Source: Candidatus Bathyarchaeota archaeon (GTDB taxonomy: Archaea > Thermoproteota > Bathyarchaeia > 40CM-2-53-6 > RBG-13-38-9). Taken from it: a stretch of 64,000 bases of DNA. The notes beneath the pieces were generated by a model. It worked only from the letters and a program-made list of their open reading frames with translations. It ran no database searches and was not told the DNA's origin. The translations under genes were made by a program, and so were the position numbers. This document shows, piece by piece, positions 29,915-52,112 of this stretch. The stretch is taken from NCBI GenBank assembly GCA_963807605.1, contig CAWECG010000004.1, positions 384,001 to 448,000 of the forward strand, in the 5' to 3' direction. Position 1 is the stretch's first letter, and each line of letters begins with the position of its first letter.

Positions 29915-32503
29915 TTATTGAAAGAAAGTCTCAAGTTTTGTTGTCCCTATGAGTTCAGCGAAGCTTAGTCCAAGAGCATCCAAGACCTGCTCAAATGTCG
30001 AGTCAATGTATTCTACATATTTTGTTACATCGATCTCACTGAGGTTTGCCAGCTGGACCGGCTTAACGCTTGGTTCCCCAACGACTTTGACATATGACAC
30101 TAGATCTCCACTCCTGATCTCTTGGCCGTTTCTGACAAGGAGCATAGCTGCCTTTACGTGCTGAGGGGTAGTCTTGACGTATGATGTTGGAGGCTTACCC
30201 ATCATCACGTTGAAAGCCAGGTCGTCAAGAGAGTATTCTCTATTCTTGAGTCTTGCGTAACAGCTTTTCACAATCTTTTTGATTGTCAATCTTGCTTGTT
30301 CAAAATCTTCCCCAAATCCGACGCGACTAAGGGTTTCTATCATCTCATAGAAGGAAATCTTCAGAAAGTTTGGTACATGTCTTTTCTTTCCCGTCAAGCC
30401 TTTGATGTCCACGTTTCCGTCTGGATAGACCCCCAGATAGTTCTTCTTGCGGAGGCTCAATGCTACGTATCGATAGTTCTTGTCAACTTCAAGTTCTAGG
30501 CCAACTTCTGCCCTCGACCACTCCATCAGCTTTTCAAGGAGCTCCGGCTTTGAACCCTCAAGGAAGATAGAGTCTGTATCGCCATAGAAGACCTCGATTC
30601 CAAGCTCTTTGGCTTTCTCCACGGTGTTGGTAATCACGAATCTGCCTATAGCGGCCGTCGCCTCGGCCACAGGGGGGCAGTAAAGGGGAAAACTCTCGGA
30701 GCCGAAGACGCCGTAGCTTGCGTTGAGAATGACCTTAAGGGCGTCTGATACAACCTTGTACCATGCTCTCAGTGAAGGGGACAGACCTGGGCCCTTCGAT
30801 TGTGGCTTGTACCAGTTGACTCTTAGATCCCTCAGGGATCCTATAAGAAGACTTTCGAGAGCGATCTTCTTCTTACAGATCCAGTGTGTGGTCCCGGGAA
30901 TCTTGCTTGAGCGACATTCTTCATCTGTGTGAGTGCAATTTATTGTTTCATAGCCCAAATTCCAGAGTTTAATTATTGACGGGTAAAGCGAGGCGAAATC
31001 CAGGACTGATACGTTGAAGTGAACTCCAGGAACTGGATTAACGACGATTGCGCCTTTGTATTTCTTGCCCTTGATAATCGCCTCGGTTACAGTGCCTCCT
31101 TTCTCACTTATGATCTCATCCGACCGAGGGATGAGGTATCCACGTTTTCGATGCTCTCTGTAGAGCATACTCTTGATCCACGCGGATACGCCCTGACGGG
31201 TTACATCTTCCACGCCCATATATGAGATTCTTGAAAGTACTATCATGAGCTTCATGAGTAGTTCGTCATCGAATTTTGTCAGGTTCTGTGTGATCTCGAC
31301 ATCCCGATAACAGTACGATGCGAGATCCGAGTACGAAAGTTGGGACACAGGACGTTCTAGAGGCTTCTTAGACATGTTCACTAGAGCTGAACCGATCTCG
31401 TCGAGCGTCTTCTCCCTGTATTTCTGGCCGAATGCGTATACTTGGATTGACCTGTTGAAGAAGAACCTGTAGAGGTCGATGTGAACGCCGGACTTGAGCG
31501 TTGCAGAATCACGACCCAACTCGATCGGGATCTCATCCCTCGTTAAGCCAAGTCTTTGAGCGCGGTTCCAAAGATATCTGAGGTCGAAGTCGTCTCCGTT
31601 GAACGTTATTGTAAACGGATAGCTAGAAAGAAGAGAAAAGACTGCTTTTAGCAGGTCTCTCTCATCTTCATAGAATTCGACTATGCTTTTTGATGGTATT
31701 TCCTCTTTGCCTTCTTCAACGCCGGCTCTTCTGAGCAGCATGAGTTTCTCCATGCCGTCTGAACCAATGCCACCTACACAGATCACTGGGTCTTCAGCGA
31801 CATGCGGGTCAGGCATTCTTGTTGCGATCTGAGAACACACCTCTATGTCCAATGCTAGGCGTTTGATTTTTGGGACAGGACGTTCGAGGAGCCCAATCCA
31901 TTCGTCCGACAAGAGCCTGTAATCTTCAGACTCAGCTTCCAGCACTTTCCCGAGACTGCCCAAAACTCTTGTTGAGACTTTACCGGCTGGCGTGAGCCTA
32001 CCGTTTACGGTGCGATAGGGCATGCCGGGCTTCAAGCCACTGTCATAGATGTAGTTTTCAACGTATTTTATGTCGGCCTCCCAAGCTCGTATTATCTCTC
32101 TTATAGTTCCTGATGGTCTGCCTCCTATCGAGAGCGGGTCTTTGGCCACTATCATGGACATAGAGACTTCTCTATCTCTCAGAGCGTCATACCTGTTGAC
32201 TGTTTCAAAATGGTCAAGTCCCGAATGAGCCATTAGTGATGAATTCTCTTTCAACTTCTCTATGGGTAGATCCGAAAGACAGTAAGGTTTGTGGGCCGTG
32301 TCATCATACCACAGTACAATCTTCTCAGTTGATATGTCGTACAATTTGAGGTAAGCAGACTTCTTCGCTCCATCATAACAGCAAGCGACAAGATACGATT
32401 CCTTGGTTGAATCTCCAAGATCTGCCAAGCGAGAGGGAGGTGTCTCGATAACGTTCTGTGGCCTCTGTATTACTGGAATGTAATCTTCCAAGCTTTCCTT
32501 CAC
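29915..32503 (-). CDS. polB: Family B DNA polymerase (PolB1-type)
   Basis: Exonuclease motifs LDIE, FNGDDFD, YCYRD; polymerase motifs DFASLYP, KVILNASYG, YGDTDS, KKNY. Confidence 0.96.
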   Translation of the reverse strand: MKESLEDYIPVIQRPQNVIETPPSRLADLGDSTKESYLVACCYDGAKKSAYLKLYDISTEKIVLWYDDTAHKPYCLSDLPIEKLKENSSLMAHSGLDHFETVNRYDALRDREVSMSMIVAKDPLSIGGRPSGTIREIIRAWEADIKYVENYIYDSGLKPGMPYRTVNGRLTPAGKVSTRVLGSLGKVLEAESEDYRLLSDEWIGLLERPVPKIKRLALDIEVCSQIATRMPDPHVAEDPVICVGGIGSDGMEKLMLLRRAGVEEGKEEIPSKSIVEFYEDERDLLKAVFSLLSSYPFTITFNGDDFDLRYLWNRAQRLGLTRDEIPIELGRDSATLKSGVHIDLYRFFFNRSIQVYAFGQKYREKTLDEIGSALVNMSKKPLERPVSQLSYSDLASYCYRDVEITQNLTKFDDELLMKLMIVLSRISYMGVEDVTRQGVSAWIKSMLYREHRKRGYLIPRSDEIISEKGGTVTEAIIKGKKYKGAIVVNPVPGVHFNVSVLDFASLYPSIIKLWNLGYETINCTHTDEECRSSKIPGTTHWICKKKIALESLLIGSLRDLRVNWYKPQSKGPGLSPSLRAWYKVVSDALKVILNASYGVFGSESFPLYCPPVAEATAAIGRFVITNTVEKAKELGIEVFYGDTDSIFLEGSKPELLEKLMEWSRAEVGLELEVDKNYRYVALSLRKKNYLGVYPDGNVDIKGLTGKKRHVPNFLKISFYEMIETLSRVGFGEDFEQARLTIKKIVKSCYARLKNREYSLDDLAFNVMMGKPPTSYVKTTPQHVKAAMLLVRNGQEIRSGDLVSYVKVVGEPSVKPVQLANLSEIDVTKYVEYIDSTFEQVLDALGLSFAELIGTTKLETFFQ

Positions 32504-36057: not shown

Positions 36058-36537
36058 ATGGGTTCTAGCTTGAGTCACAAGGAAGACTCGGAACAGGAAG
36101 TAATCGTTTTCGATTCTGAAAGGTGTACGGGTTGCTCTTACTGTATGATCGCCTGCAGCTTCAAACATTATGGGATGACGGATTTTGAGAAATCACACAT
36201 CAAGATCATTGATGGCCCACAGAGACCAAAGATACGATTTGTGGGGATTCATTGCATACACTGCGATGATCCTCTATGTCTCGCATCGTGCCCTGTAGGA
36301 GCTGTAACCAAAGATAACAACACCGGTCTAGTCAAGATCAATTCCACTATCTGCATTGGCTGTAAAGCCTGTTTAATCGCATGTCCAATCTCAAACCCAA
36401 GCTTCGACGAAGAGAGGCGCGTAGCGGTCAAATGCGACTTCTGTGACGGAGATCCGCAGTGTGTCAAGTTCTGCACGTCAGAGGCACTCACAAGAAGCAG
36501 CAGGGAGAACGCTCGCAAAAGATTCGCGCAGTGTTGA
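36058..36537 (+). CDS. 4x[4Fe-4S] electron-transfer protein (HycB/HydN/CooF/DmsB type)
   Basis: CTGCSYCMIAC, CIHCDDPLCLASCP, CIGCKACLIACP, KCDFCDGDPQCVKFC. Confidence 0.9.
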   Translation: MGSSLSHKEDSEQEVIVFDSERCTGCSYCMIACSFKHYGMTDFEKSHIKIIDGPQRPKIRFVGIHCIHCDDPLCLASCPVGAVTKDNNTGLVKINSTICIGCKACLIACPISNPSFDEERRVAVKCDFCDGDPQCVKFCTSEALTRSSRENARKRFAQC

Positions 36538-36553
36538 GGATGGGTCAACCATA

Positions 36554-36835
36554 ATGTCTGAGGAAGAAAATTTGATCTATCCCCTAAGGAAAAAGGCGAG
36601 GAGTTCGGTCCCCGCCTCATTCCAAGGTGCTGTCACAAATCTCATCAACCAAGGGCAAATCCAGAGTCTCCTAGACTTCTGGATTGATGAGAGGACAGGG
36701 CTCGGTCTTCCCGAGAAACCAGTCTCGGCCTACTCCTCAGAGAAAGCGGTTCAACAGAGTCAAGATATCATCAAGGAGTTGGGATTCGACCGTAGCCTAC
36801 ACTTTGATTGGAAGCAGAAGAGGCTGAAGACATGA
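36554..36835 (+). CDS. Small Cys-free protein resembling the C-terminal region of HdrC
   Basis: ATG at 36554; RTGLGLPEKP...AVQQSQDII.ELGFD..L.FDW pattern; stop overlaps the hdrB start (ATGA). Confidence 0.6.
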   Translation: MSEEENLIYPLRKKARSSVPASFQGAVTNLINQGQIQSLLDFWIDERTGLGLPEKPVSAYSSEKAVQQSQDIIKELGFDRSLHFDWKQKRLKT

Positions 36836-37716
36836 TGAGACGGTCGACATACCGATCGAAGACGATGATGTTCTGGGGTTGTATGATCCCAACCGTTCAG
36901 CCATTTGTGGAGAAGGCTGCACGATTCTCGCTCGAGAGGCTTGGTGTGACATTCCAGGAAATGCCAGATGCGACATGTTGTCCGGATCCAGAGATCTCAA
37001 GAACACTCGGAGGTGACTTGTGGCTGACGTTGGCAGGTCGTAACATATCAATAGCCAATCAGGCCGGTGGGGATATCTGTGTAATCTGCAATGGATGCTT
37101 CGACACCCTGAGCAAAGCAAACTCCGAGCTGAACGTAGACAAGGCTCTGAGTCGGAAAGTCAACGCGACGCTCACAAAGTACGGGGCAAGACACGACGGT
37201 TCAAGCCGAATATTTCACATGATTGAGTACCTCCACGACATAGTCGGCCTCGAAGCCATCCAAGAGAAGGTCATCAGATCTCTCTCAGGCCTCAATTGCG
37301 CCCCCCAGTACGGCTGCCGCATACTAAGAGAGAAGCTGGACTTACGTGCAAAGTTTGACGACCTTATCACAGTTCTCGGAGGGCGACTGATCCATACGGA
37401 GACAGAGAGGCTTTGTTGCGGAGTGCCAGCGATGTATGCCAATCCTGACTTTTCACTCCACCAAAGAGCCAAGGTAAAACTTGAAGAGATCAAAGAATCG
37501 AAAGCAGACTGCGTAACCCTCTTCTGTCCAGCATGCGCCGAGAGGCTCGAAAGAGCCCAGATGACACTCAGAAATGATGGATACAACTTCGACATCCCCG
37601 TGGTAAATTACCTGGAGCTGCTTGCACTATGCTTGGGAGCCTCATCTTCAGAAATCGGTACACATCTTCACAGAATATCACTTGACCCAATCGTGGGGAG
37701 GATCCTGAAGACCTAA
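36832..37716 (+). CDS. hdrB: Heterodisulfide reductase subunit B-like protein (two CCG domains)
   Basis: FWGC...TCCP...CNGC and YGC...LCCG...CPAC. Confidence 0.9.
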   Translation: MMRRSTYRSKTMMFWGCMIPTVQPFVEKAARFSLERLGVTFQEMPDATCCPDPEISRTLGGDLWLTLAGRNISIANQAGGDICVICNGCFDTLSKANSELNVDKALSRKVNATLTKYGARHDGSSRIFHMIEYLHDIVGLEAIQEKVIRSLSGLNCAPQYGCRILREKLDLRAKFDDLITVLGGRLIHTETERLCCGVPAMYANPDFSLHQRAKVKLEEIKESKADCVTLFCPACAERLERAQMTLRNDGYNFDIPVVNYLELLALCLGASSSEIGTHLHRISLDPIVGRILKT

Positions 37717-38063
37717 TGAAAATCAGGAGACTCCCTCTAGGCCTCTCGCTTACACTACTTACAGGGGGATCCCTAGGAATCGGGATTGCGCGAACAACGA
37801 TCGAGGTCTTCCTTTGCTCTGAACTGGTCACAATATCCGTTTTTTACATCTTCTTCACAGTCATAATCCCAGCAATACGGCCTTCAAGCGTCGATACGGA
37901 AGCCATCTTTCTCGGAGGACTAGCGAGATCGCCTTACCTTTCAGGATCTGAACTCTTTTCGCCTGGAATACCTGTCATCTCAGAAGACATTGATGATTCT
38001 TGGGAGAATTACTTCGATAGAAACAGACTTGAGCCAAATGAGGAGTCTAAGGAAGAAGCTTGA
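37716..38063 (+). CDS. Small two-TM membrane protein of the hydrogenase operon
   Basis: Two hydrophobic helices and an acidic tail; overlaps both neighbours. Confidence 0.6.
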   Translation: MKIRRLPLGLSLTLLTGGSLGIGIARTTIEVFLCSELVTISVFYIFFTVIIPAIRPSSVDTEAIFLGGLARSPYLSGSELFSPGIPVISEDIDDSWENYFDRNRLEPNEESKEEA

Positions 38064-39604
38064 CAATCGCAGCCCTAGCCCCACCCATAATCCTCACATT
38101 CTCGGCAGTAGCATCAACCGTAATCGGACGCAGATCCATTGCTCGTAGAAATGTCGTAATCGCTTTTTCATTTGTGTCTGCCGTTCTCGTGAATACTTAC
38201 TTTCTTATCCTCTCGCTGAATGGAGGCTTCGGATACGCCAAAATCGGCGAATTTACCGTAAACGCTGCTTCAATCTTCATCTCTGAGCTTGTCCTGGTCC
38301 TAGCTTTTCTAGGAGCCCTTTACAGCTTCAGCTACATTGAGGAGAGATCTGAGACTTGGGCTTACTATCTCCTCTATCAACTCTTCACTGCAATGATGAT
38401 AGCGATGGTCTCAAGCTTCAATGTTCTAGTCATGTATGTCTTCTTGGAGGGAAGCAGCGTAACAAGTGCGATACTTGTGATGTTCAGCAGAAGAAGAAGC
38501 AGCATCCTAGCCGCTTACCGATACCTTGTGCTCAGCATCTTCGGCGGCATCATAATCATAGGAGGAATCTTCTGGCAGTACCAGCTGACTCACACTCTAA
38601 ACTTAGCTGGTCTGGCCAGCCTAGCCAAAACAGATGTGAACTTTCTGGCGACCATTTACCTGCTAGGGTTCGGCGTAAAGGCCGGACTGCTACCCTTCGG
38701 CCTGTTCTGGCTCCCACCGGCGCATAGCGAGGCACCTATCCCCATACATACCCTGTTGAGTGCCGCCCTTGTCCAGGTCGCTGCCTTCGATATAGCGCGA
38801 GTCTTAGGCGGCGTGGGCATTGGAAACATGTACATCTCCAATATGCTCCTAGCAACGGGCCTTGCAAGCATGATCGTCGGCGCACTATACGCACTCATCG
38901 AGGCGTGGTATGGAAGCAAATACACCAGACTTCACGTGGGTCTCCGGCACATTCGTGGAATTAAGAGAGTCTGGGCGTTCTCAACCATCTCGGAAATGGG
39001 TTACATAACCTTGTTTCTGGGATTGGCTGGACTCCTTGCGAACCAGAAAGCGGGGTATGAAGAGGCACTGGTCCTTGGATTTGGTGGTGCTCTCCTCCAC
39101 ATGTACAATCACGGATTCTCAAAAGCTCAACTTCTTTTCGATTCAGGTGTAATGATAAAAGTTAGCCACGCCGAGGATCTCAACCTCATGGGGGCCCTTG
39201 CAAAACGACTCCCCATCATGAAGGTATCTTTCGTAATTGGAGCTCTTAGCCTCGGACTGATCCCCGCCACGTTTGGTGTGAGAACACTCAGAGAACTAGT
39301 TTTCAACAACAACATTCCAAGCCTAGCAAAACTCGTAGTCATAGCCACAGCAGGACTCTCCCTTATTGCATGCCTTTCAGTCTGGTATTGCTGCTTCTTC
39401 TCTAGGTCTAACATCCAATCTGACGATCGCCCCAAGGTCCCGAGAACCATGTACCTGCCCGGCCTCCTAATGGGAGGCCTGATAATTCTTGTCGGAAGTT
39501 ACTTCACGTTAGAATGGGCTGGCTTAATATCATCGGGTTCAAGCCTTACTGATACCCTACGGATTCTCGCCGAGACAACGATTAAGAGTAGCGCGGGGTC
39601 CTAG
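38060..39604 (+). CDS. Antiporter-like ion-translocating subunit (HycC/MrpD/NuoL-M-N family)
   Basis: YVFLE, AAYRYL, GFGVKAG..P...WLPPAH.EAP, AFSTISEMGY, NHGFSKAQL. Confidence 0.92.
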   Translation: MTIAALAPPIILTFSAVASTVIGRRSIARRNVVIAFSFVSAVLVNTYFLILSLNGGFGYAKIGEFTVNAASIFISELVLVLAFLGALYSFSYIEERSETWAYYLLYQLFTAMMIAMVSSFNVLVMYVFLEGSSVTSAILVMFSRRRSSILAAYRYLVLSIFGGIIIIGGIFWQYQLTHTLNLAGLASLAKTDVNFLATIYLLGFGVKAGLLPFGLFWLPPAHSEAPIPIHTLLSAALVQVAAFDIARVLGGVGIGNMYISNMLLATGLASMIVGALYALIEAWYGSKYTRLHVGLRHIRGIKRVWAFSTISEMGYITLFLGLAGLLANQKAGYEEALVLGFGGALLHMYNHGFSKAQLLFDSGVMIKVSHAEDLNLMGALAKRLPIMKVSFVIGALSLGLIPATFGVRTLRELVFNNNIPSLAKLVVIATAGLSLIACLSVWYCCFFSRSNIQSDDRPKVPRTMYLPGLLMGGLIILVGSYFTLEWAGLISSGSSLTDTLRILAETTIKSSAGS

Positions 39605-39605
39605 C

Positions 39606-41282
39606 ATGGAACGTTCTGAAGAGATACTTACCGGACTCAAGCAAAGACTCGGTGCAGACTTCATCTCGGAATCAAGAAGCGCCCCGAACACCTTCTGGAT
39701 TCACATCCAAAGAGGAAGAGTGAGGGAAGTAGCTAGCTATCTTACCAATGAGATCCATGGAAGGCTAAGTCACATCTCAACGATCGACAAGGGCTTGGAT
39801 GGCTACGAGGTCGTATATCATTACGCCCTAGACCACCTTGAAAAATTCCTACACCTGAACCTCAAAGTCCAGCTTCCCATAGACGAAGCTGAAATCGAAT
39901 CCGTCTCCCGGGAAGCTCCGGAGTCGTCCTGGTCGGAGCGAGAGATGATGGAGTTTACTCCAGTACAGTTCAAAGGCCATCCGGATCCCAGGCATCTCTG
40001 GCTACCCTACGAGTGGCCAAACGCTGTTGAGAGTGAAAAGTGTGAACATTTCATCGACAAGGTCGGCGACCCGTCACCGTTAGGAAATTCATCTAGGAAT
40101 GCTGAGGCTACGCTAATACCTCTTGGCCCCTATCATCCTCTGCTCATAGAAGGCGCATACTTCCGAGTGAAAGTTGATGGTGAAGAAATAACAGACGTGG
40201 ATGTGAAATTGGGGTGGAATCACCGAGGAATAATGAAACTCTTTGAGGGGCGCAGCTACACAAGAGGTGTCTTTCTGGCAGAACGGATCTGCGGCATATG
40301 TAATGTTACCCACACCACGGCATATCTGAATGCAGTCGAATCTCTGAGTGGGGCAGAGATCCCTCCTCGCGCACGCTATATTCGAACATTGATGGCTGAA
40401 CTTGAGAGAATTCACAGTCACCTCCTTTGGTTGGGAGTTGCTGGAGACCTGATTGGGTTCAGGACGCTCTTCATGCTCTCTTGGAAGGTGAGAGAACAGG
40501 TACTGGACATTTTCGAGTTGTTGACTGGAAGCAGAAGAGCTCCTGCAATGAACCTTATCGGTGGAGTAAGGAAAGATGTGACTGGCGAAACCTCCACCAA
40601 GATAGAAACGCGTCTTCGTAGCGTAAAGAAGGAAGCGGAGAAACTAATCGAAATAGTCTACAACCACTCGGTTGCGAGAAAGAGGCTTCAAGACATTGGA
40701 AAACTAGATCTTGACACGGCAAGGAAAACCGGAGTTGTAGGACCCACTGCGCGAGCCAGTGGATGGAAACTCGATACTCGCTTGTCAAGCCCCTACGCAG
40801 CATACGCGGCTGAATACACAACATGGGATGTCGTGACCGATGACGGAGGGGATGTCTGGGCTAGGACAGTCGTTCGACTAAAGGAGATTATCGTCTCGAT
40901 CAGCATAATTCTACAATGCCTTGAGGGGCTGGACCGCGTAAGCGGAGGAATACTGAGTGAGCCTGTCGATCCTAAAGACTTCAAACTGACTGAGGCCATC
41001 GGAAAGGCTGAGGCGCCAAGAGGCGAACTTTTCTACTATATCGTGTCAGACGGAACAAACATACCCCATAGCGTACGAATAAGAACCCCGAGCTTCAGAA
41101 ATATCTCGATAGTGCCAAGACTTCTGAAAGGACACACGGTTGCAGACGCACCAATAATCGTGGGAAGCATAGACCCTTGTTACTCTTGCACAGACCGCGT
41201 AGTAATTGTGAAAGACTCACCATCAGACTCTTCAAACAAATTTCTGCCTGACACGAATCGGAAGGGAGTGAAATGGCCGTAG
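39606..41282 (+). CDS. Group 4 [NiFe]-hydrogenase large subunit, fused NuoC+NuoD (HycE-like)
   Basis: ERE...F.GHPDPR (NuoC part); GPYHP, HRG, ERICGIC (L1), EAPRGE, DPCYSCTDR (L2) plus a C-terminal extension. Confidence 0.95.
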   Translation: MERSEEILTGLKQRLGADFISESRSAPNTFWIHIQRGRVREVASYLTNEIHGRLSHISTIDKGLDGYEVVYHYALDHLEKFLHLNLKVQLPIDEAEIESVSREAPESSWSEREMMEFTPVQFKGHPDPRHLWLPYEWPNAVESEKCEHFIDKVGDPSPLGNSSRNAEATLIPLGPYHPLLIEGAYFRVKVDGEEITDVDVKLGWNHRGIMKLFEGRSYTRGVFLAERICGICNVTHTTAYLNAVESLSGAEIPPRARYIRTLMAELERIHSHLLWLGVAGDLIGFRTLFMLSWKVREQVLDIFELLTGSRRAPAMNLIGGVRKDVTGETSTKIETRLRSVKKEAEKLIEIVYNHSVARKRLQDIGKLDLDTARKTGVVGPTARASGWKLDTRLSSPYAAYAAEYTTWDVVTDDGGDVWARTVVRLKEIIVSISIILQCLEGLDRVSGGILSEPVDPKDFKLTEAIGKAEAPRGELFYYIVSDGTNIPHSVRIRTPSFRNISIVPRLLKGHTVADAPIIVGSIDPCYSCTDRVVIVKDSPSDSSNKFLPDTNRKGVKWP

Positions 41283-42286
41283 GAAACCTGTTCGCGATGA
41301 CTTCTTTAGCGGGCATTATACTTGTGCCTCTCGCAAGCTTCTTCCTGGGCGTAATCTATAGCTATGAGATACGGAAGATCTCGGCCCGACTCCAATCGAG
41401 GAGTGGCCCGTGGCTTCTTGTTCCCAAGTCTCTCAGACATGCTCTCGGCACAACTAGGATTTTCCAGCCTCTCTTTGACATCCTCAAGCTGCTCTACAAG
41501 GAATCTCTGGTTCCTCACACCGCCAAGACCAGACTCTTTCGATTAGCACCCTACACTGGTCTGATCTGTTTGGTCGCCGCCGCCACTCTGATACCCTTTG
41601 CCGGCTACTCGCCCTTTGCCTCTTTCGAACTCAGCCTTGTCGCTGTTTTGTATCTCCTTCTAGGCGTCCCCTTCGCATCCATACTGGGCGGTGCTGCGAG
41701 CTCCTCACCTTGGGGAGTGCTGGGAAGTCAGAGGGAGGCAGAGCTGATGCTGGCATGTGAGACACCCCTTGCTATCGGAGCATTTACCGCCGCAGTAATG
41801 GCTAACACTCTATCAATACAGAAGATCCTCAGCGTACAGATATCCTGGTACCCCTTCCTGATTCTGAACCCATTTGCAGCGGCCGCCTTCCTACTCGCAA
41901 TCGTCGGCAAACTCCATCTCAAACCATTCGACATGCCTGAGGCCGAAGTTGAGATCGTGGCAGGACCGACAACGGAGTACAGTGGAAGTCTGCTTGGAAT
42001 CATTGAGATAGGTAAGGTTCTTCTGATCTCAGTCATCGTAACTCTCTTCATCGACCTGTTCTTGGCAGGCGGATTCATACTAGGGCTTGAATATCCCCTG
42101 AGGACTCTCGCATTCGTTATCGAAGGCATTGTGATCATTTCCTTGATCGCTCTCATACACACGCTGAACCCTCGGTTCAGGATCGATCAGGCCTTAGCAT
42201 GGTATGTGAAGGGCCCCACAGTTCTAGCTGCAGTAGGACTAGCTTGGGCCTACGTCCTACGATACTTATACCCAGCCATCCTGTGA
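41273..42286 (+). CDS. Hydrogenase membrane subunit (HycD/NuoH/EchB)
   Basis: RKISARLQSR.GP, QPLFDILKLL.KE, PFDMPEAE.EIVAG...EYSG, PRFR. Confidence 0.93.
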   Translation: MAVGNLFAMTSLAGIILVPLASFFLGVIYSYEIRKISARLQSRSGPWLLVPKSLRHALGTTRIFQPLFDILKLLYKESLVPHTAKTRLFRLAPYTGLICLVAAATLIPFAGYSPFASFELSLVAVLYLLLGVPFASILGGAASSSPWGVLGSQREAELMLACETPLAIGAFTAAVMANTLSIQKILSVQISWYPFLILNPFAAAAFLLAIVGKLHLKPFDMPEAEVEIVAGPTTEYSGSLLGIIEIGKVLLISVIVTLFIDLFLAGGFILGLEYPLRTLAFVIEGIVIISLIALIHTLNPRFRIDQALAWYVKGPTVLAAVGLAWAYVLRYLYPAIL

Positions 42287-42296
42287 GGTTGCAACG

Positions 42297-42875
42297 GTGA
42301 AATCGGGCTTAACCAAGCTTACCAGAGTACTCATCGGGAACGTCTTTCGCCCCGTTACTGTGGACTACCCAGTGAAAAGTCAACAAGTCGGAGATGTTAC
42401 CATTAACCAAGAGGAGGCTAGAGGGAAACATAGCTTCGATGACGAAAAGTGCATCGGGTGCGGAGCCTGTACCGTCGTATGTTCCAGTGGCGCAATCACA
42501 GAATCAGATGTGCAATTTGAGAGGAGCCTAAAGGTAGAGCTCGGTCGGTGCATATTCTGCGGGAGATGTCGCGACATCTGTCCTGAGAAAGGACTTGAAT
42601 TGACACCTCAATTTGAACTCTCCCAGACCGGAAAGGGTGCAGAAGATTCAATAAAAGTTGAACATACGATCCAGCTTGGAAAATGCGAAAGCTGCGGTCG
42701 AGCAACCTTTCCAATGAAACAGATAGACACGGTCGTCAAGAGAGCTCTTGAGAAGATAGATCTAGCGAACAAGATAACTGCCGGCAGGGACATGGAAGTC
42801 TACGTGAGATATTGCTCTGACTGTCGAAGAACCCAGAGTTACCTCCTGAATATTCACCCACGCAAATCGTACTAG
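42297..42875 (+). CDS. Hydrogenase 2x[4Fe-4S] subunit (HycF/NuoI)
   Basis: CIGCGACTVVC and CIFCGRCRDICP, plus HycF-like C-terminal CESC...CSDC. Confidence 0.92.
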   Translation: MKSGLTKLTRVLIGNVFRPVTVDYPVKSQQVGDVTINQEEARGKHSFDDEKCIGCGACTVVCSSGAITESDVQFERSLKVELGRCIFCGRCRDICPEKGLELTPQFELSQTGKGAEDSIKVEHTIQLGKCESCGRATFPMKQIDTVVKRALEKIDLANKITAGRDMEVYVRYCSDCRRTQSYLLNIHPRKSY

Positions 42876-42890
42876 ACCCACGGTGAGATT

Positions 42891-43340
42891 GTGAGGCTCG
42901 ATCTGAAAGGTAAGGTACGTTCATATTCACCTTGGATCTTCCACGCCCATGCTGGTGGCTGCAACAATTGCGATATCGAGCTGGCTGCATGTTTTGCTCC
43001 GCGCTTCGACCTCGAGAGGATGGGTGTTCAACTTAGAAACAACCCTCGCCACGCAGACATATTTCTGGTAACGGGACCCGCGCCAAAGCAGATCGCCCCA
43101 ATTCTACAGCGGATATACAGTCAAGTACCTAACCCGAAGGTCACGATCGCGTGCGGATCTTGCGCCATCACTGGCGGGATATACAACCGCGACGACGGAA
43201 AAGCAAACTACGCACTTGGCGGTCCAATAGAGAAACTCATTCCCGTCGATGTCTTGATTCCCGGATGCCCACCAAGACCAGAATCTATAATAGAAGGCCT
43301 CATGTTAGCTTTGGAAAAGCTTAGGAAGAAGACGACTTGA
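42891..43340 (+). CDS. Hydrogenase small subunit (HycG/NuoB/EchC)
   Basis: GGCNNCDIE, PRHAD, GSCA..GG, PGCPPRP. Confidence 0.94.
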   Translation: MRLDLKGKVRSYSPWIFHAHAGGCNNCDIELAACFAPRFDLERMGVQLRNNPRHADIFLVTGPAPKQIAPILQRIYSQVPNPKVTIACGSCAITGGIYNRDDGKANYALGGPIEKLIPVDVLIPGCPPRPESIIEGLMLALEKLRKKTT

Positions 43341-43365
43341 GATTCCTAGGCAGGTGATTTTTTAA

Positions 43366-43800
43366 TTGGTCAAAGTTGATGAATTCGACTTACCAGACGA
43401 ACTGTACTACCTCGAAGAGGGAAGAAGCTGGGCAAAGGTCGAGCCTGATGGTAACGTGCGGGTCGGACTCTCTGACATAGCCATCAAGATGGCAGCGGAT
43501 ATAATCTACATACGCCTCAAGCCAAAGGGTGCAGTCGTCGAGCGGGGTAAAGGCTTCGGAACAATGGAAAGCTCAAAATGGGTTGGACCTCTCAAATCAC
43601 CAGTATCAGGAACAATAATCAGCGTCAATGAAGTGCTAACCAAGAATCCAAGCGTGATGGTGAAAGACTCGTATGGCGGAGGGTGGACCGTGATCATCCA
43701 ACCGACAAACCTAGAGAATGACATAAAGGGTCTTCTTCATACGCCCGAACAACTCACCGCATGGGCGACAAAGGAAAAGGCGAACCTTCAGAAAAAATAG
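43366..43800 (+). CDS. Glycine-cleavage H-like lipoyl-carrier protein
   Basis: LYY....W, VRVGLSD.A, GTMESSKWVG (lipoyl-Lys position), SPVSG...VN, DSYGGGW. Confidence 0.9.
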   Translation: MVKVDEFDLPDELYYLEEGRSWAKVEPDGNVRVGLSDIAIKMAADIIYIRLKPKGAVVERGKGFGTMESSKWVGPLKSPVSGTIISVNEVLTKNPSVMVKDSYGGGWTVIIQPTNLENDIKGLLHTPEQLTAWATKEKANLQKK

Positions 43801-43861
43801 AGCAATGCCGATGAAACGGTAAGCAACTTCATCAACAATAGATTCTTGCCGGACATCTAAG

Positions 43862-45244
43862 ATGAATAAGGAACAAGTAGACGAGCTCGCCTCGATTGTC
43901 GGGCCGCAGAACGTATCCACCGAGATTCTTGAATTAGAGGTCTATTCACGCGACCCTACGGTCGTCAGGGGAATAGCGGAGGCCGTAGTCTGGCCCATAG
44001 ACGCTGAACAAATAAGTAAGGTCATGGCATTTGCCAACAAGACCAAGATTCCTATCTACCCAAGAGGGGCGGGAAGCAGCCTCTGTGGCGGCCCAGTCCC
44101 TCTGGAACGTGGAATCGTTCTCTCCCTCGAGAGGATGAATAAGATCCTTGAGATAGACGTTGAGAACCTCCAATTTCTAGCCGAGGCGGGCGCGAGCATC
44201 CGGGAGATAAACGACGCACTCAAACCCCTCAATCTGTTCATTCCGCCCGACCCTGCCAGTGAGGTAGCATGCACGATAGGAGGATGCGTCGCAAATAATG
44301 CCGGTGGCATCCATGCGGTGAAATATGGCACCTTTAAGGACTGGGTTCTAGGCGTTGAGCTGGTCTTACCCACTGGGGAGATAGTCTCGACAGGAACAAA
44401 GACGAGGAAGAGCGTCTCTGGGTATGATCTGACGGGCCTAATAACGGGTTCCGAGGGGACTCTGGCAGTCATAACCAAGGTCCGGGCAAGAGTTGTAGCA
44501 GTTCCGGAGAGTCGAATGGTAACCACCGCATACTTCAACACTGCCGAAGATGCCGGCAGAGCATCGTTCAAGATAATGGTCAGAGGCCTCAATCCCTCTG
44601 CAATCGAACTCCTTGACAAGACTACTATGCAGACAATCTCACAGTACCTGACGATGAAGTTGCCACCAGCTGGTGCAATGCTCATCTTGGAATTTGATGG
44701 CCCCCGAGGTGACGTCGATTACCGAATGGGTGTGGCAGAGAACATCTGCAAAGAGGAGGGGGTGATAGAAGTCAAGGTCTCTGCTACAGAGGACGAGAGC
44801 TTAAGCCTTTGGAGTGCTAGGAAAACCGCCTTTCAGTCTCTGGCTGTCCTAGGCAAGACATCAATCCTGATAGAAGACATCACGGTGCCTATCAGCAGAG
44901 TCCCTGAGATGCTCCGCCACATACATGAGATAGCTGAGAAATACGCAATATTAGTCCCAACATTCGGTCATGTTGGAGATGGGAATCTCCATCCCCACGT
45001 ACTCTACGACGAAGAGAACCGAGATGAGTACGACAAGGCCATGGCGGCCACGGACGAGATCTTCAAGACGGCCGTGGAACTTGATGGGACTATATCAGGT
45101 GAACATGGAATAGGCGTACTCAAGAAAAAGTTCTTTCCCCTCGAACACGATTCAATAGAGACAGCCGTAATGAAGAGGATCAAAAAGCTCTTCGATCCCA
45201 ACAATATCCTAAATCCACATAAAATCTTCCCAGAAGAGGAGTGA
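43862..45244 (+). CDS. FAD-linked 2-hydroxyacid dehydrogenase (GlcD / D-lactate dehydrogenase family)
   Basis: PRGAGSSL.GG, PDPAS...TIGG, GYDL...GSEGTL, GHVGDGNLH, GEHGIG, NPHKI. Confidence 0.93.
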   Translation: MNKEQVDELASIVGPQNVSTEILELEVYSRDPTVVRGIAEAVVWPIDAEQISKVMAFANKTKIPIYPRGAGSSLCGGPVPLERGIVLSLERMNKILEIDVENLQFLAEAGASIREINDALKPLNLFIPPDPASEVACTIGGCVANNAGGIHAVKYGTFKDWVLGVELVLPTGEIVSTGTKTRKSVSGYDLTGLITGSEGTLAVITKVRARVVAVPESRMVTTAYFNTAEDAGRASFKIMVRGLNPSAIELLDKTTMQTISQYLTMKLPPAGAMLILEFDGPRGDVDYRMGVAENICKEEGVIEVKVSATEDESLSLWSARKTAFQSLAVLGKTSILIEDITVPISRVPEMLRHIHEIAEKYAILVPTFGHVGDGNLHPHVLYDEENRDEYDKAMAATDEIFKTAVELDGTISGEHGIGVLKKKFFPLEHDSIETAVMKRIKKLFDPNNILNPHKIFPEEE

Positions 45245-45247
45245 CCC

Positions 45248-46402
45248 TTGAACTTCAGGCCGACTCTTGGCAAAGAATTGAGCTACGAACTGAACAAGTG
45301 CTTCAGATGCGGTTTCTGCAGAAGCCAGTGTCCCATCTACCAATCGAAGCAGAATGAGACATGGAATGCACGAGGAAGAATGATGACCGTCCAGCTTATG
45401 AGAGAGGGAAAGTTGGGACTGGATGAAAAAGTGCTTGACCGGATCTACACATGCGCCCTATGCAAAGCATGTGAGAAGATTTGCCCCGGACTGGTAAAAG
45501 TCACAGATATCGTTAGAGAAGTCAGACGCCAACTTGTTGAGATCAATAGCGGGCCTCTTCCTGAACACCTTAAGATGTCGGAGAACATCGCTTCCACAAA
45601 GAACATCTTGGCTATGAAATCGAGAACTCCCGAACTCCAAGGAGCTATTGACAGGCTGCCCAAGACGGCCGACACAATCGTATTCATGGGATGCGTAGCC
45701 CAATACGTCTATCCCAAGCACCTGACCGCACTCTTCAAGATACTAGAAAAAACAAAGACAGAATTCACAGTCCTAAATGACGAACTCTGCTGCGGAAGCT
45801 TCCTAGCCGAACTCGGCCTGACGAAGGAAGCAAAGAATGTTCTGACGGAGACAGCCAACTCGCTTAGAGAGTGGGATGTTAAGAGAATAGTCACCCTATG
45901 TCCAATGTGCTACAACACGTTCAAGAATGACCTTCCCAAGCTGGAGATCACACCAGCCATCAAGGTCCAACACTCGACACAACTACTGGAGGAAGCCCTC
46001 ACAAAAGGAACCCTCAAGCTCTCATCGCCGGTGAAGATGAAGCTGGCTTACAAAGATCCATGCCACCTTGGAAGATACGCCGAAGTCTACGATACGCCTA
46101 GGAACATACTCAAAATGATCGACGGGGTAGAACTCGTCGAGTTAGATCGGACCAAAGAATTTGCGAGATGCTGCGGAGGAACCATAAGAATTCCCTACTC
46201 CGAATTACGGAATGATCTGTGCAAGAACTTCTTCGATGAGGTCTTGAAGTCTAAGGTTGAGGGTGTCGTTACATCATGCCCCTCCTGCTTCCACAACCTC
46301 TACTCAACAGCACCTTACGAGATAAAAGGCATATTCGACATCCACGAGATTCTTGCTCACGCACTCGGCACACTTGAGAAGATCCCATCTTACGAGTATT
46401 AG
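45248..46402 (+). CDS. Fe-S/CCG-domain protein (GlcF/HdrD-like)
   Basis: CFRCGFCRSQCP, CALCKACEKICP, FMGC, CCG, CPMC, DPCHLGR, CCGG, CPSC. Confidence 0.92.
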   Translation: MNFRPTLGKELSYELNKCFRCGFCRSQCPIYQSKQNETWNARGRMMTVQLMREGKLGLDEKVLDRIYTCALCKACEKICPGLVKVTDIVREVRRQLVEINSGPLPEHLKMSENIASTKNILAMKSRTPELQGAIDRLPKTADTIVFMGCVAQYVYPKHLTALFKILEKTKTEFTVLNDELCCGSFLAELGLTKEAKNVLTETANSLREWDVKRIVTLCPMCYNTFKNDLPKLEITPAIKVQHSTQLLEEALTKGTLKLSSPVKMKLAYKDPCHLGRYAEVYDTPRNILKMIDGVELVELDRTKEFARCCGGTIRIPYSELRNDLCKNFFDEVLKSKVEGVVTSCPSCFHNLYSTAPYEIKGIFDIHEILAHALGTLEKIPSYEY

Positions 46403-46449: not shown

Positions 46450-47349
46450 TCATTCTCGTTTTCGTTCATTCGCAGCTAGAACTTCAAAAAGAATCTTGGC
46501 AGCCTGTGCTGCAGTGGTCCCATGATCATAGTTGGGACAGACCTCAACCAAGTCCAGTCCGACCAGATCTCTGCCCACGATTCTCTCCAGAATATCTATC
46601 ACTGAGAAGTTTTCAAGACCGTCTCCCTCTGGGTTTCCAACCCCTGGAGCGTAGGCAGGATCGAGGACATCGATGTCCAAGGTGATATATCTGCTCTTGA
46701 ACCTGCTCAGCTTTGAGTTAATTAACTCGGCTATCTTTCCTGTCCCTTGATTTCGAACGTCGTAAGTTGAATAGAAGGTTATTCCGCTCTCTCTGGCAAA
46801 CTGCAACTCTTCTCTTGCGACGGCTCTTGTTCCAACCTCGATTATTCGCTCAGGCCCTATCTGCTCAGCGAGTCTCCGCATGTAGGTTGTATGCGAGACC
46901 CGCTCACCCATGTATTCATCCCTAAGGTCTAGGTGAGCGTCGAAGTCTACTACTGCAACGTCTTTCCCAAGTGCTTTGACGGAGCCATATGTTAGGGTGT
47001 GTTCGCCGCCGAGTAGAAGTGGCACCTTTCCTGCTTCCCTTATTTCGCGAACGGAAAGTTCCAAGCGTCTTAGCGTCTCTTCGATATTATCTACAACGAC
47101 GAGATCTCCCGCATCGCATATCTCAATGTCTTCTACATCTAAACCTGATCTGAGGCTGTAAGTCTCAATATTGAGAGATGCCTCTCTGATCGCGCTCGGT
47201 CCCAGAGCCGATCCGCTCCTGTACGTGCTTGTCCGATCGTAGGGAAAGCCAATTACCACATATTTCGCTTGGTCAAAATCTTGGTTGTAACCACTGAAAG
47301 GCTTCTCCACAGACGTATAGAGTCTAAGGTTGTCTCCCCTTATTGGCAA
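46450..47349 (-). CDS. speB: Agmatinase
   Basis: GPSAIREAS, GGEH, DAHLD, SH, DIDVLDP..APG, VEV. Confidence 0.93.
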   Translation of the reverse strand: MPIRGDNLRLYTSVEKPFSGYNQDFDQAKYVVIGFPYDRTSTYRSGSALGPSAIREASLNIETYSLRSGLDVEDIEICDAGDLVVVDNIEETLRRLELSVREIREAGKVPLLLGGEHTLTYGSVKALGKDVAVVDFDAHLDLRDEYMGERVSHTTYMRRLAEQIGPERIIEVGTRAVAREELQFARESGITFYSTYDVRNQGTGKIAELINSKLSRFKSRYITLDIDVLDPAYAPGVGNPEGDGLENFSVIDILERIVGRDLVGLDLVEVCPNYDHGTTAAQAAKILFEVLAANERKRE

Positions 47350-50021: not shown

Positions 50022-52112
50022 TTATCTCTCGAAGTTTTTCTTAGGTGTTTCCACGTAACATTTTGGGCATGTGATGAGAGGTCGACCTCTCATGCCTCTG
50101 GACTTGACCATTTGGAAGCCGCACCTCTGACAATACCTATTAAGTAACTGGAGTGTCCCGAATTGTGGTAGGGGTAGTGAGAATCTACAGTTGCCTGTCC
50201 AAGCTCCTGAGCATCCTATGAATCTCTTTTTGGTACTCTTGCTTCTAATGACCCTGAGTTGAAGGCCACAATTGGGACACGGCACTTTGAGCGTAATTCT
50301 CTGTAAATTCATCTCTCTTACAGCATCACTGAGGTCTCGTCCTATCTCCTCTTCGCTACTCTTGATCTGACGCATTATAGGCTTCAACTGTTCGATGGCC
50401 ATAGCAACCACATTTTCATGTTTGGCTTCTCCGAACTCTATTTTACTCATCTGGAGTTCTAAATCTCTGGTGAAGGTTACGTCGACGATCTTGGGGCAGT
50501 GCTTCTCAAGAACCTCGATTACTTTTTCTGCAAGAGGGCTTGCCTTGATGGATTCATCTAAAATATAGCCCCTTCTGTAGAGGATGTCGATTATCTCGGA
50601 TCTGGTTGCTTTGGTGCCTATTCCATTATTCTCCATCTCTATCAGGAGGCTGCTGGGGTTGTAGCGTGTAGGCGGAGCCGTGAAATGTTCTTGGGCCGAA
50701 ATTCTGTTGAATGTAATCTCTTGCCCCACCCGAAGGGGAGGCAATGATACTTCGGTAAATTCGGAGTAAGGTTCATAGTACCGGATCCAGCCGGGGTAGG
50801 TAAGCCTCGAGCCATGAATGTGGAACGTGTATTCATCAGCAACTTTGATTGTGGCTCTTTGTATTAGCCTTGTTCCCGTTGATGCAAAGGCAGCCATAAA
50901 CCTCTTTGTTACCAAGTCCAGGATTCGTCTTTCTCTTGGTTCAAGTTGTCTCTTCGGCTGCTGGCCTGTTGGATAGATCGCAGGGTGAGCGGAGTCGGTT
51001 TTATTCCCTTCTGTGGGCTTGAGGGCGGATTGAGACATTAGCTCAGCTGAGAGTTCCCTATACTCTGGGTTCCTTTTGAGTCCCTCCAGTATTGTCCTGT
51101 AGCCTATTGAGGCTGGGAGTTTCTGGCTTGAAGTCCTGGGGTAAGAGATCAATGCATCCAAGTAAAGGCGCTCTAATATCCTCAAGGTCTGACTTGGGCT
51201 GGCGCGGAAGTGCTGGTAGGCTTCTGACTGAACGGAGGTTAGATCAAAGGGGATTGGCGGTCGAACCTTTACGTTACTTTCCTGAAGTTCCTCAATGTAT
51301 CCGGATTTTCCACTAATCTGTGTGACTATGCCTTCGGCCTCTGCCTTGTCATCAATCTTCTTCCTTGAGTACTGGGTTTCTACTAGAACCCCACTTATGT
51401 CCACCGTCGCATCAATCGTCCAGTACGGTATCGAAACATGGGTTACGATCTCGATCTCTCTGTCGACAATGAATCGAAGCGTAGGCCCTTGAACTCTTCC
51501 CGTGCTGATTGTTGCATACCGGCCGCTATGACTCCGGGCTGACTCCGTAAGCGCCCTGGAGAGATTGACACCATAAAGCCAGTCTATCTCATGCCTGCAC
51601 ATACCGGCCTGAGCAAGCTGGTAATCAAGCTCGGGCGATAGATTGAGATAGGCTTCTCTAAGGTCAACTCTTGTCAATGTGCTGAATCGCATTCTGCTCG
51701 CTTTGCGGTCGGCGCCGTTGCAGGCGTACTTCAGAATCATATATCCGATCAGGGATCCCTCGATGTCGTAGTCGCATGCGTTGATGAAACGGTCAACGCC
51801 GATCCCGAGCTCTTGAATTGCTCTCAGCCACCCCCTCTGGCTTTCGTAGCCCTTCTCAACCCGATACTTGGGTTTCCAAGAGAACTCCCAAACGGGATAG
51901 GCTCTCCGTGAAGAATCATCTTTCGAATCTACAACATAGAGGTGCCCGAGCGCAGGACAGATCGCCGTCTCTTCGCCTTGTCGGACGATTTCGTAATATG
52001 TCAGGCCATATTTCCGGTGTTCAGATACTGGGTCATCTGTCAATGCCTCTGCCAGTCTTCTGGCGGCATCCGGCTTCTCACAGATGATGAGCGTCCTACT
52101 CAGTATTTCCAC
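50022..52112 (-). CDS. topA: Type IA DNA topoisomerase with C-terminal zinc ribbons
   Basis: ICEKP, GHL, DYDIEG, STGRVQGP, ISYPRT (catalytic Tyr), AHPAIYPT, GIGTKATR. Confidence 0.96.
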   Translation of the reverse strand: MEILSRTLIICEKPDAARRLAEALTDDPVSEHRKYGLTYYEIVRQGEETAICPALGHLYVVDSKDDSSRRAYPVWEFSWKPKYRVEKGYESQRGWLRAIQELGIGVDRFINACDYDIEGSLIGYMILKYACNGADRKASRMRFSTLTRVDLREAYLNLSPELDYQLAQAGMCRHEIDWLYGVNLSRALTESARSHSGRYATISTGRVQGPTLRFIVDREIEIVTHVSIPYWTIDATVDISGVLVETQYSRKKIDDKAEAEGIVTQISGKSGYIEELQESNVKVRPPIPFDLTSVQSEAYQHFRASPSQTLRILERLYLDALISYPRTSSQKLPASIGYRTILEGLKRNPEYRELSAELMSQSALKPTEGNKTDSAHPAIYPTGQQPKRQLEPRERRILDLVTKRFMAAFASTGTRLIQRATIKVADEYTFHIHGSRLTYPGWIRYYEPYSEFTEVSLPPLRVGQEITFNRISAQEHFTAPPTRYNPSSLLIEMENNGIGTKATRSEIIDILYRRGYILDESIKASPLAEKVIEVLEKHCPKIVDVTFTRDLELQMSKIEFGEAKHENVVAMAIEQLKPIMRQIKSSEEEIGRDLSDAVREMNLQRITLKVPCPNCGLQLRVIRSKSTKKRFIGCSGAWTGNCRFSLPLPQFGTLQLLNRYCQRCGFQMVKSRGMRGRPLITCPKCYVETPKKNFER

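Follow-up and report, generated by a model that had tools for sequence, protein, structure and literature searches.

A Bathyarchaeia operon combining an HdrB-linked [NiFe] hydrogenase, a GcvH-like carrier and a GlcD/GlcF dehydrogenase suggests a lipoyl shuttle

Introduction

Which electron carrier could connect HdrB, a hydrogenase and a GlcD/GlcF-type dehydrogenase that are encoded in one archaeal operon? The question was raised by 12 genes at positions 36058–46402 of a 64,000-nucleotide (nt) stretch of Candidatus Bathyarchaeota archaeon DNA (assembly GCA_963807605.1, contig CAWECG010000004.1, positions 384,001–448,000), hereafter the window. The conservation of HdrD/GlcD and heterodisulfide reductase (Hdr) proteins in non-methanogenic Korarchaeia and Bathyarchaeia has been called puzzling, the disulfide being unknown (PMC10667645, PMC7886697). 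The operon united candidate donor, acceptor and carrier modules in a genome with no HdrA match to confuse the picture, and a sequence-only reading of the window had proposed that a protein-bound lipoyl group couples the HdrB-hydrogenase to GlcD/GlcF. This was retained as the best model, on the basis of a conserved gene grouping and the presence of lipoylation genes. A lipoyl shuttle between HdrB and GlcF, running in either direction, is probable, and the H2-consuming order of HycB, HdrB, lipoyl-GcvH, GlcF/GlcD and 2-oxoacid has slightly less than an even chance of being correct.

Ehd, Ehe, Drh and Ehg were described by Kohtz et al. (2022; ISME Commun 2:86) as group 4 hydrogenases clustered with HdrB (PMC9723716). 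In the Culexarchaeia Ehe, the hydrogenase is found with HdrBC, an antiporter, SdhA, CdhA, HdrA2B2C2 and GcvH, and the lipoyl group of GcvH was proposed as the disulfide of HdrB in this non-methanogenic host (PMC9723716). A literature search, mostly of open-access papers, found Ehe/Ehd and GlcD/HdrD each described, and none joining GlcDF, an HdrB-hydrogenase and the carrier. The sequence-only reading had regarded the joined modules as new; the core and the use of lipoyl by HdrB were already published for Ehe, and the GlcD/GlcF partner of the HdrB-hydrogenase-carrier core appears to be new. The soluble half of the system (GcvH, GlcD, GlcF and LplA) can be expressed and assayed, giving a direct test of the lipoyl shuttle published for Ehe. 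If true, the model would add a hydroxyacid dehydrogenase that depends on lipoate, together with a new way of disposing of electrons or gaining energy in an abundant sediment lineage.

Overall organization of the operon

The operon was composed of 12 intact co-directional open reading frames on the + strand, separated in gene order by 16, −4, −1, −4, 1, −10, 10, 15, 25, 61 and 3 nt, with the two widest gaps (25 and 61 nt) on either side of gcvH. Family scans upheld all 12 gene labels, in agreement with the closely packed cluster of these identities that had been read from the letters. The gene order is non-random because it was kept gene for gene on single contigs in three relatives (G008, G002, and G011). 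The GC content of the operon (0.49–0.51) was slightly higher than that of its flanks (0.46–0.49). As had been noticed earlier, no formate dehydrogenase gene was found within the operon; no convincing FdhF was found in the source genome, which held a single molybdopterin-family gene of ~460 residues that was 21% identical to an FdhF-like query.

The first gene (36058..36537) encoded a 159-residue HycB-like 4x[4Fe-4S] protein (Pfam Fer4_11, E 1.6e-16) containing four CxxC motifs and 17 Cys in all. The second (36554..36835) encoded a 93-residue protein with a profile match to the C-terminal tail of HdrC without its iron–sulfur (Fe-S) part. This Cys-free homologue of HdrC residues 121–183 (profile E 3.3e-9 to PDB 8rvu_c; hhalign 96%) is a probable HdrB adaptor, and its gene was also present in the Ehe locus. 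HdrB (36832..37716; 294 residues from the ATG) matched TIGR03288 (E 1.6e-59) and 5odc_B (E 3.5e-45). Its 10 CCG cysteines formed two complete CCG (non-cubane cluster) motifs, a complete motif being C-x31-36-CC-x32-35-CxxC, and the Cys positions gave two complete motifs in GlcF as well. HdrB is thus a predicted disulfide reductase.

The large subunit (39606..41282; 558 residues) was assigned to the group 4 [NiFe] hydrogenases from its four Ni/Fe cysteines and a tree, and was a fused 30+49 kDa form with a C-terminal extension. The Ni/Fe ligands C229/C232 and C525/C528 were invariant among 9 homologs, and the nearest solved structure was E. coli HycE (7z0s_E). It was followed by a HycD/NuoH-like membrane anchor (41273..42286; PF00146, E 3.4e-60), a HycF-like Fe-S subunit (42297..42875; NF009053, E 4.9e-30), and a HycG-like small subunit (42891..43340; PF01058, E 4.5e-30). 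Both CxxC ligand pairs and the small, Fe-S and NuoH-type subunits of a group 4 membrane-bound [NiFe] hydrogenase were present. A broken-gene or complex I (Nuo/Fpo) reading was excluded by the four intact Ni cysteines.

GlcD (43862..45244) was a GlcD/LctD-family D-2-hydroxyacid dehydrogenase of the flavin adenine dinucleotide (FAD) type, composed of FAD_binding_4 and FAD-oxidase_C domains. The active-site residues R320, H370, H377, and E414 were intact. The match to TIGR00387 (E 4.8e-137; 457 bits) was under the glcD equivalog cut-off of 568 bits, and comparison with PDB entries gave 288 bits for LctD (7qh2_C), 271 for glycolate oxidase, 246 for LDHD, and 177 for D2HGDH. GlcD is therefore predicted only broadly, as acting on a D-2-hydroxyacid/2-oxoacid pair. 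The GlcF/HdrD-like protein (45248..46402) combined a 2x[4Fe-4S] domain with a pair of complete CCG motifs that were invariant across the GlcF alignment. A second GlcD/GlcF pair in the source genome (G000:C3:14056-18005), 41%/31% identical to the operon pair, lay directly upstream of a serine-hydroxymethyltransferase-like gene (recognised by visual inspection of its sequence), a possible sign of glyoxylate or hydroxypyruvate metabolism.

Lipoyl carrier and its CCG partners

The GcvH-like carrier (43366..43800; PF01597, E 1.1e-30) was of the ESSKWVG type and contained no Cys. Residue Lys71 was aligned with the lipoyl Lys of PDB GcvH structures, was invariant in the carrier alignment, and is the predicted lipoylation site. 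The Bathyarchaeia source genome (2.65 Mb) was 94% complete, so that absence of a gene from it is not proof. It contained lipA, four LplA-family genes and an E1/E2/LplA/Lpd cluster, together with the maturation genes hypD and two HycI proteases; therefore the hydrogenase can be matured and the carrier lipoylated. No match to gcvP or gcvT was found in the genome, which leaves the carrier without a glycine-cleavage job. In the tree it fell among ExxKW[VI] carriers, which were separate from the glycine-cleavage-linked ES[VI]KA carriers (short protein; Shimodaira–Hasegawa-like approximate likelihood ratio 94), and a glycine-cleavage role was rejected on both grounds.

Searches of the same genome gave no match to mcrA, comA, MvhD or full-length HdrA. 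Operation without coenzymes M (CoM) and B (CoB), as first proposed, agreed with this result and with the lipoate and hydrogenase maturation genes found.

The association of the carrier with CCG proteins was examined with 36 KW[VI] carriers chosen on carrier score alone, none of which had been used to build the profile; the profile was made from hydrogenase- or GlcDF-linked carriers, and kin in the counts were not independent. A CCG gene was located within 2.3 kb in 21 of these 36 loci and within 7 kb in 24, whereas none of 13 canonical ES[VI]KA carriers had one within about 2.3 kb; the background was 1.4%. In complex prediction, GlcF and GcvH scored 0.41 against 0.00 for the best control, with at least 79% of contacts shared between runs and a partner predicted local distance difference test value of at least 87. 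Of 80 solved pairs, 58 attained the mark for this score, as did 2 of 110 mismatched pairs, and among those passing, scores of 0.60 or less came from only 7 of the 80 solved pairs and from both mismatches. The complex modelling that had been suggested thus gave weak support for binding between GlcF and GcvH.

The disulfide on which HdrB and GlcF act might instead be a small molecule (cysteine, CoA or an analogue of CoM/CoB), with the carrier in sulfur trafficking or another role. The absence of comA leaves other CoM routes possible, and in the mcr-less genomes G065 and G600 no gcvH adjoined the core, which is likewise used without GcvH by methanogen Ehd (PMC9723716). However, G065 and G600 carried a KWV-type carrier elsewhere in the genome, carrier, CCG and LplA genes were strongly clustered, and the carrier had no Cys for sulfur binding, unlike bacterial LbpA (PMC6067878). 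This explanation is therefore given a low probability. Under the lipoyl shuttle model, the carrier may be a hub that also exchanges with other CCG enzymes and Lpd.

KW[VI] carriers often adjoined genes for aldehyde:ferredoxin oxidoreductase and amino-acid permease (L097:5582-7937, L198, L194, L195, and L228), which suggests a link to amino-acid fermentation, and OsmC-like genes adjoined them in other loci. A third GcvH-like gene of the source genome, with an ESTKTTL motif, ended a run of small Cys-rich proteins (G000:C3:541788-544534), and similar arrangements were seen in G027 and G001.

Hydrogenase clade and comparison with known systems

The large-subunit phylogeny that had been suggested placed the protein in a clade (support 100/99) shared with Ehd, Ehe, Methanocella Drh and Odinarchaeia-type sequences, within which it formed a separate Bathyarchaeia branch (97/94). 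A topology that joined it to Ehe only was rejected (approximately unbiased test, p-AU 0.026). The tree model was site-homogeneous, which gives these placements moderate weight. The complex belongs, as a Bathyarchaeia representative, to the Ehd/Ehe/Drh clade of HdrB-interacting hydrogenases.

The sequence-only reading had left room for a match to a characterised Ehd-type gene set. The first ten genes corresponded to the Ehd/Ehe/Drh core, with the same core genes in Ehe, whereas GlcDF was not matched. GcvH, the HycB-like protein, HdrB, HycG, the large subunit, HycD and HycF were common to the operon and the Ehe locus of Culexarchaeia GB-1867-035; a 92-residue HdrC tail and a 95-residue membrane protein of Ehe also matched window genes, and an antiporter was present in most Ehe loci. 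However, the partners of Ehe were SdhA/SdhB-like proteins, HdrA2B2C2 and CdhA, none of which was found in the window operon with its GlcD/GlcF, and the Ehe carrier had the motif ESTKATS instead of ESSKWVG. Identity with Ehe in the strict sense was rejected by the separate large-subunit branch and the gene content, despite the co-located GcvH.

Ehd of Methanomethylicia shared with the window a hydrogenase, HdrB, an HdrC-like protein, an antiporter with Gln in transmembrane helix 8 (TM8), and membership of the same large clade (100/99). Ehd hosts have mcrA, and Ehd is thought to reduce CoM-S-S-CoB (PMC9723716), whereas the window host gave no mcrA match. Strict identity with Ehd was rejected on this ground and on the presence of gcvH in the operon.

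The HdrD/GlcD proteins of Bathyarchaeia, Methanomethylicia and Korarchaeia, for which lactate-to-disulfide coupling was proposed (PMC10667645, PMC6421429), combine the same FAD hydroxyacid dehydrogenase with the same 2x[4Fe-4S]/CCG protein as the window. The published models place this pair with an Fpo-like complex and CoM-S-S-CoB; the window places it with an HdrB-hydrogenase and a lipoyl carrier. In the sHdr-LbpA system, a GcvH-like lipoyl protein is essential for an Hdr-like complex and dedicated ligases are encoded nearby (Cao et al. 2018, PMC6067878). LbpA shares the conserved lipoyl Lys with the window carrier; bacterial LbpAs carry two conserved Cys, which are missing from some archaeal LbpAs (PMC6067878) and from the window carrier. 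The operon had no sHdrA or sulfurtransferase genes, and its predicted chemistry is that of H2 and organic acids instead of sulfur. Homologs of HycB, HycD, HycE, HycF and HycG and one antiporter-like subunit were shared with E. coli formate hydrogenlyase (PMC9474812); the window differed in having no FdhF and in its extra HdrB, HdrC tail, small membrane subunit, carrier and GlcDF.

Outside the window, the source genome encoded another group 4 hydrogenase cluster linked to HdrB (L047:8046-13506; G000:C4:56045-61505). Its large subunit was split and an antiporter was absent, and a similar cluster was retained in relatives without the window's hydrogenase. Halobacteriota and Methanobacteriota loci (L099:7701-13564 and L059:2108-6481) contained hydrogenases of the same clade as the window's with HycB-like and small membrane genes and no adjacent HdrB; the L099 locus lay just before an ATP synthase operon.

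Conservation and exchange of modules among relatives

The window-type large subunit was found in 17 of 401 genomes of the class (E 1e-150 or better). Besides the three relatives with the full order on one contig, the 12-gene set was split across contigs in G006, G001, and G014. Within the family, a GlcD ortholog (76–87%) was present in 10 of 15 relatives and the hydrogenase in only 6. In G003, G009, and G013, gcvH-glcD-glcF stood directly after the methylase gene that precedes the operon, and the nine hydrogenase-side genes were missing. In G012, a 17-codon hycG scar was located before gcvH (L130:4538-6427; misassembly is possible), and a fusion gene with membrane, Fe-S and CCG parts occupied the site of the hydrogenase operon in relatives. 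The reverse arrangement, gcvH with the hydrogenase and HdrB and no GlcDF, was found in Ehe, G086, G017, and Odinarchaeia-type loci.

The carrier was thus kept with either half, which favours the carrier as a partner of both. The synteny of gcvH-glcD-glcF with the hydrogenase, on which the sequence-only reading had relied, was borne out by the relatives with the full order, but the block was separable and four relatives kept it alone. The block is therefore a module rather than a set of obligate subunits; this and the behaviour of the carrier speak against a single 12-subunit machine in which every part is obligate.

The separability also bears on an explanation in which gcvH-glcD-glcF is a self-standing lipoyl-linked dehydrogenase recycled by Lpd and NAD, with the HdrB-hydrogenase being only co-regulated beside it and working on a different disulfide or carrier pool. 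All four relatives kept the block at an unchanged chromosomal position although they lacked the hydrogenase, Lpd was above the family cut-off in G003 and G013, and the largest gaps of the operon flanked gcvH. However, the hydrogenase-less G003, G013, and G012 still retained HdrB beside another group 4 large subunit, GcvH remained with the hydrogenase where GlcDF was absent, and hydroxyacid dehydrogenases were recruited repeatedly and independently beside this hydrogenase clade. A Shine–Dalgarno-like GTGA preceded gcvH, and the T-run there was dropped as a terminator, since it was not conserved among relatives. This explanation was considered distinctly unlikely.

Evidence for repeated recruitment came from other families, where the cluster was rearranged and the GlcDF was different (38–40% identity). 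On the longer contigs these clusters mostly contained gcvH and aldehyde:ferredoxin oxidoreductase (G022, G027, and L097); L096 was without both and had LplA nearby. The two hydrogenase-linked GlcD sets did not form one clade, and a single origin of hydrogenase-linked GlcDF was rejected (p-AU 5e-81); therefore hydroxyacid dehydrogenases were placed beside the hydrogenase at least twice, or one set replaced the other. In G064, LutA- and LutB-like genes came after gcvH (L143:2050-4515), in divergent orientation to the HdrB-hydrogenase cluster, and in G017 and G026 gcvH and Lpd were present at the hydrogenase cluster. The G004 locus (L171:5572-16209) contained a group 1-type [NiFe] hydrogenase, a small membrane gene, an HdrD-like protein and an ESGKWV carrier, together with GlcD/GlcF, LplA and a second GlcD, a similar design built on another class of hydrogenase. 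Neither gcvH nor glcDF was present in the Ehd clusters examined in seven genomes with mcr. Each module adjoining the hydrogenase was either a lipoamide enzyme or a protein with CCG motifs, as would follow from a role of the carrier as a shared dithiol shuttle.

The same comparison addressed direct docking of GlcF on HycB at the FdhF site, with electrons passing along an Fe-S wire and the lipoyl carrier serving HdrB separately. HycB binds the donor dehydrogenase FdhF in formate hydrogenlyase (PMC9474812), and the ferredoxin-like 2x[4Fe-4S] domain of GlcF would suit such contact. However, both thiol-reactive CCG motifs were complete in GlcF, and after hydrogenase loss it was gcvH rather than hycB that remained with glcDF. 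HycB accompanied hdrC'-hdrB in most loci, including Ehd loci without GlcF. Docking of this kind is very unlikely.

Antiporter and ion translocation

Two membrane genes lay between HdrB and the large subunit. The first (37716..38063) encoded a 115-residue small membrane subunit, weakly NuoK/MrpC-like (PF00420, E 0.004, a weak match), with a Glu in the second hydrophobic stretch that was retained in most homologs. The second (38060..39604) encoded an MrpD/MbhH-like antiporter subunit, assigned by family match and residue alignment. The proton path proposed for MbhH consists of E143, K225, K256, H350, K354, and K409 (PMC8679088). Residues E130, K207, H351, and K355 of this charged axis were retained in the window antiporter. 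However, the TM8 Lys (MbhH K256) was replaced by Gln239 and the TM12 Lys (MbhH K409) was lost, with a conserved Glu412 a few residues beyond.

The TM8 Gln was common to the antiporters of the window, Ehd, the Odin-type and a second Bathyarchaeia type, whereas the Ehe antiporter had a TM8 Glu and kept the TM12 Lys, and the source genome's own 4g antiporters retained the TM8 Lys. The change is not decay, because it was conserved, and E. coli HycC likewise deviates from the MbhH residue pattern (PMC9474812). Nevertheless, with Gln239 for K256 and no TM12 lysine, pumping cannot be assumed. The proposal of an ion-translocating complex was upheld as far as an antiporter subunit is present, and was overstated as to pumping; ion pumping at the step from H2 to HdrB would have about an even chance.

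Ehd antiporters (loci L080-L089, methanogenic Methanomethylicia) shared both the TM8 Lys to Gln change and the TM12 Lys loss. These shared changes bear on the published proposal of energy conservation by Ehd.

Proposed electron path and energetics

In the H2-consuming form of the lipoyl shuttle, electrons from H2 would pass through HycG, HycF and HycB to HdrB, by Fe-S wiring taken from homology, with the HdrC tail probably holding HdrB in place. HdrB would reduce the lipoyl disulfide on the GcvH-like carrier, which would replace CoM-S-S-CoB. The dihydrolipoyl carrier would be reoxidised at the CCG clusters of GlcF, and electrons would move on to the FAD of GlcD, whose 2-oxoacid substrate, reduced to the D-2-hydroxyacid, may be pyruvate, glyoxylate or a branched oxoacid derived from amino acids. 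The net reaction would be H2 + 2-oxoacid → D-2-hydroxyacid. A wider form, in which a lipoylated protein replaces CoM/CoB in H2:2-oxoacid respiration, an ion-pumping hydrogenase lets lactate-type fermentation conserve energy chemiosmotically, and the ExxKWV carrier is a general Hdr currency across Bathyarchaeia, is rather unlikely.

The potentials of pyruvate and glyoxylate are −0.19 and −0.09 V, respectively. That of lipoamide is −0.29 V (PMC6067878). With textbook potentials, electron transfer from H2 to lipoyl yielded −24 kJ/mol at 1 bar and ~0 at 1e-4 bar, and transfer from H2 to pyruvate was exergonic down to 1e-6 bar. Transfer from lactate to lipoyl, a step without membrane coupling, required +19 kJ/mol and a product/substrate ratio of ~4e-4. 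Because of these potentials, H2-driven oxoacid reduction is likelier than hydroxyacid-driven H2 evolution. Both directions had been put forward from the sequence; thermodynamics favours the first and makes a gradient-driven 'lactate hydrogenlyase' less likely.

In that second direction, the same lipoyl wiring would be reversed into a 'hydroxyacid hydrogenlyase', with GlcDF oxidising D-lactate or glycolate and inward ion flux driving H2 evolution from HdrB through the hydrogenase, as a mode of syntrophic or fermentative growth. LutAB, a lactate-utilisation complex, replaced GlcDF in G064, and the transfer from lipoyl to H2 is exergonic below ~1e-4 bar. For HdrD/GlcD, a coupling of lactate oxidation with the reduction of a disulfide has been put forward (PMC10667645), and the nearest solved large subunit is that of the H2-evolving HycE (PMC9474812). 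The reversal is nevertheless unlikely: the +19 kJ/mol step is soluble and cannot be driven by the gradient, and the antiporter proton path is degenerate. Furthermore, G004 had the same module beside a group 1-type hydrogenase, and enzymes of this group usually take up H2.

Several points weigh against the H2-consuming shuttle, in addition to the loss of the TM8 and TM12 lysines. The step from H2 to lipoyl approaches equilibrium at ~1e-4 bar H2, leaving little energy for pumping, and the bias of HycE, the nearest solved large subunit, is towards producing H2 (PMC9474812). The link between the hydrogenase and GlcDF is dispensable, because the GlcD ortholog was retained in 10 of the 15 family relatives and the hydrogenase in only 6. 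The carrier could instead be served by other systems of the source genome, namely its second HdrB-hydrogenase, an operon joining a group 1 hydrogenase to an HdrD-like gene, and Lpd, and G064 had an mcr-family gene yet carried gcvH at the cluster.

Flanking genes and additional features

The operon was flanked by housekeeping genes, an RsmB/NOL1-type methylase and an agmatinase (46450-47349), and the order methylase, operon, agmatinase was kept across the family. Other housekeeping genes of the flanks encoded a family B DNA polymerase (29915-32503) and a type IA topoisomerase-like protein (50022-52112). A sigma-70 promoter and terminator scan gave fewer sites than in shuffled sequences, the sigma-70 model excluding archaeal signals. 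Three LarA-family genes were also present in the source genome.

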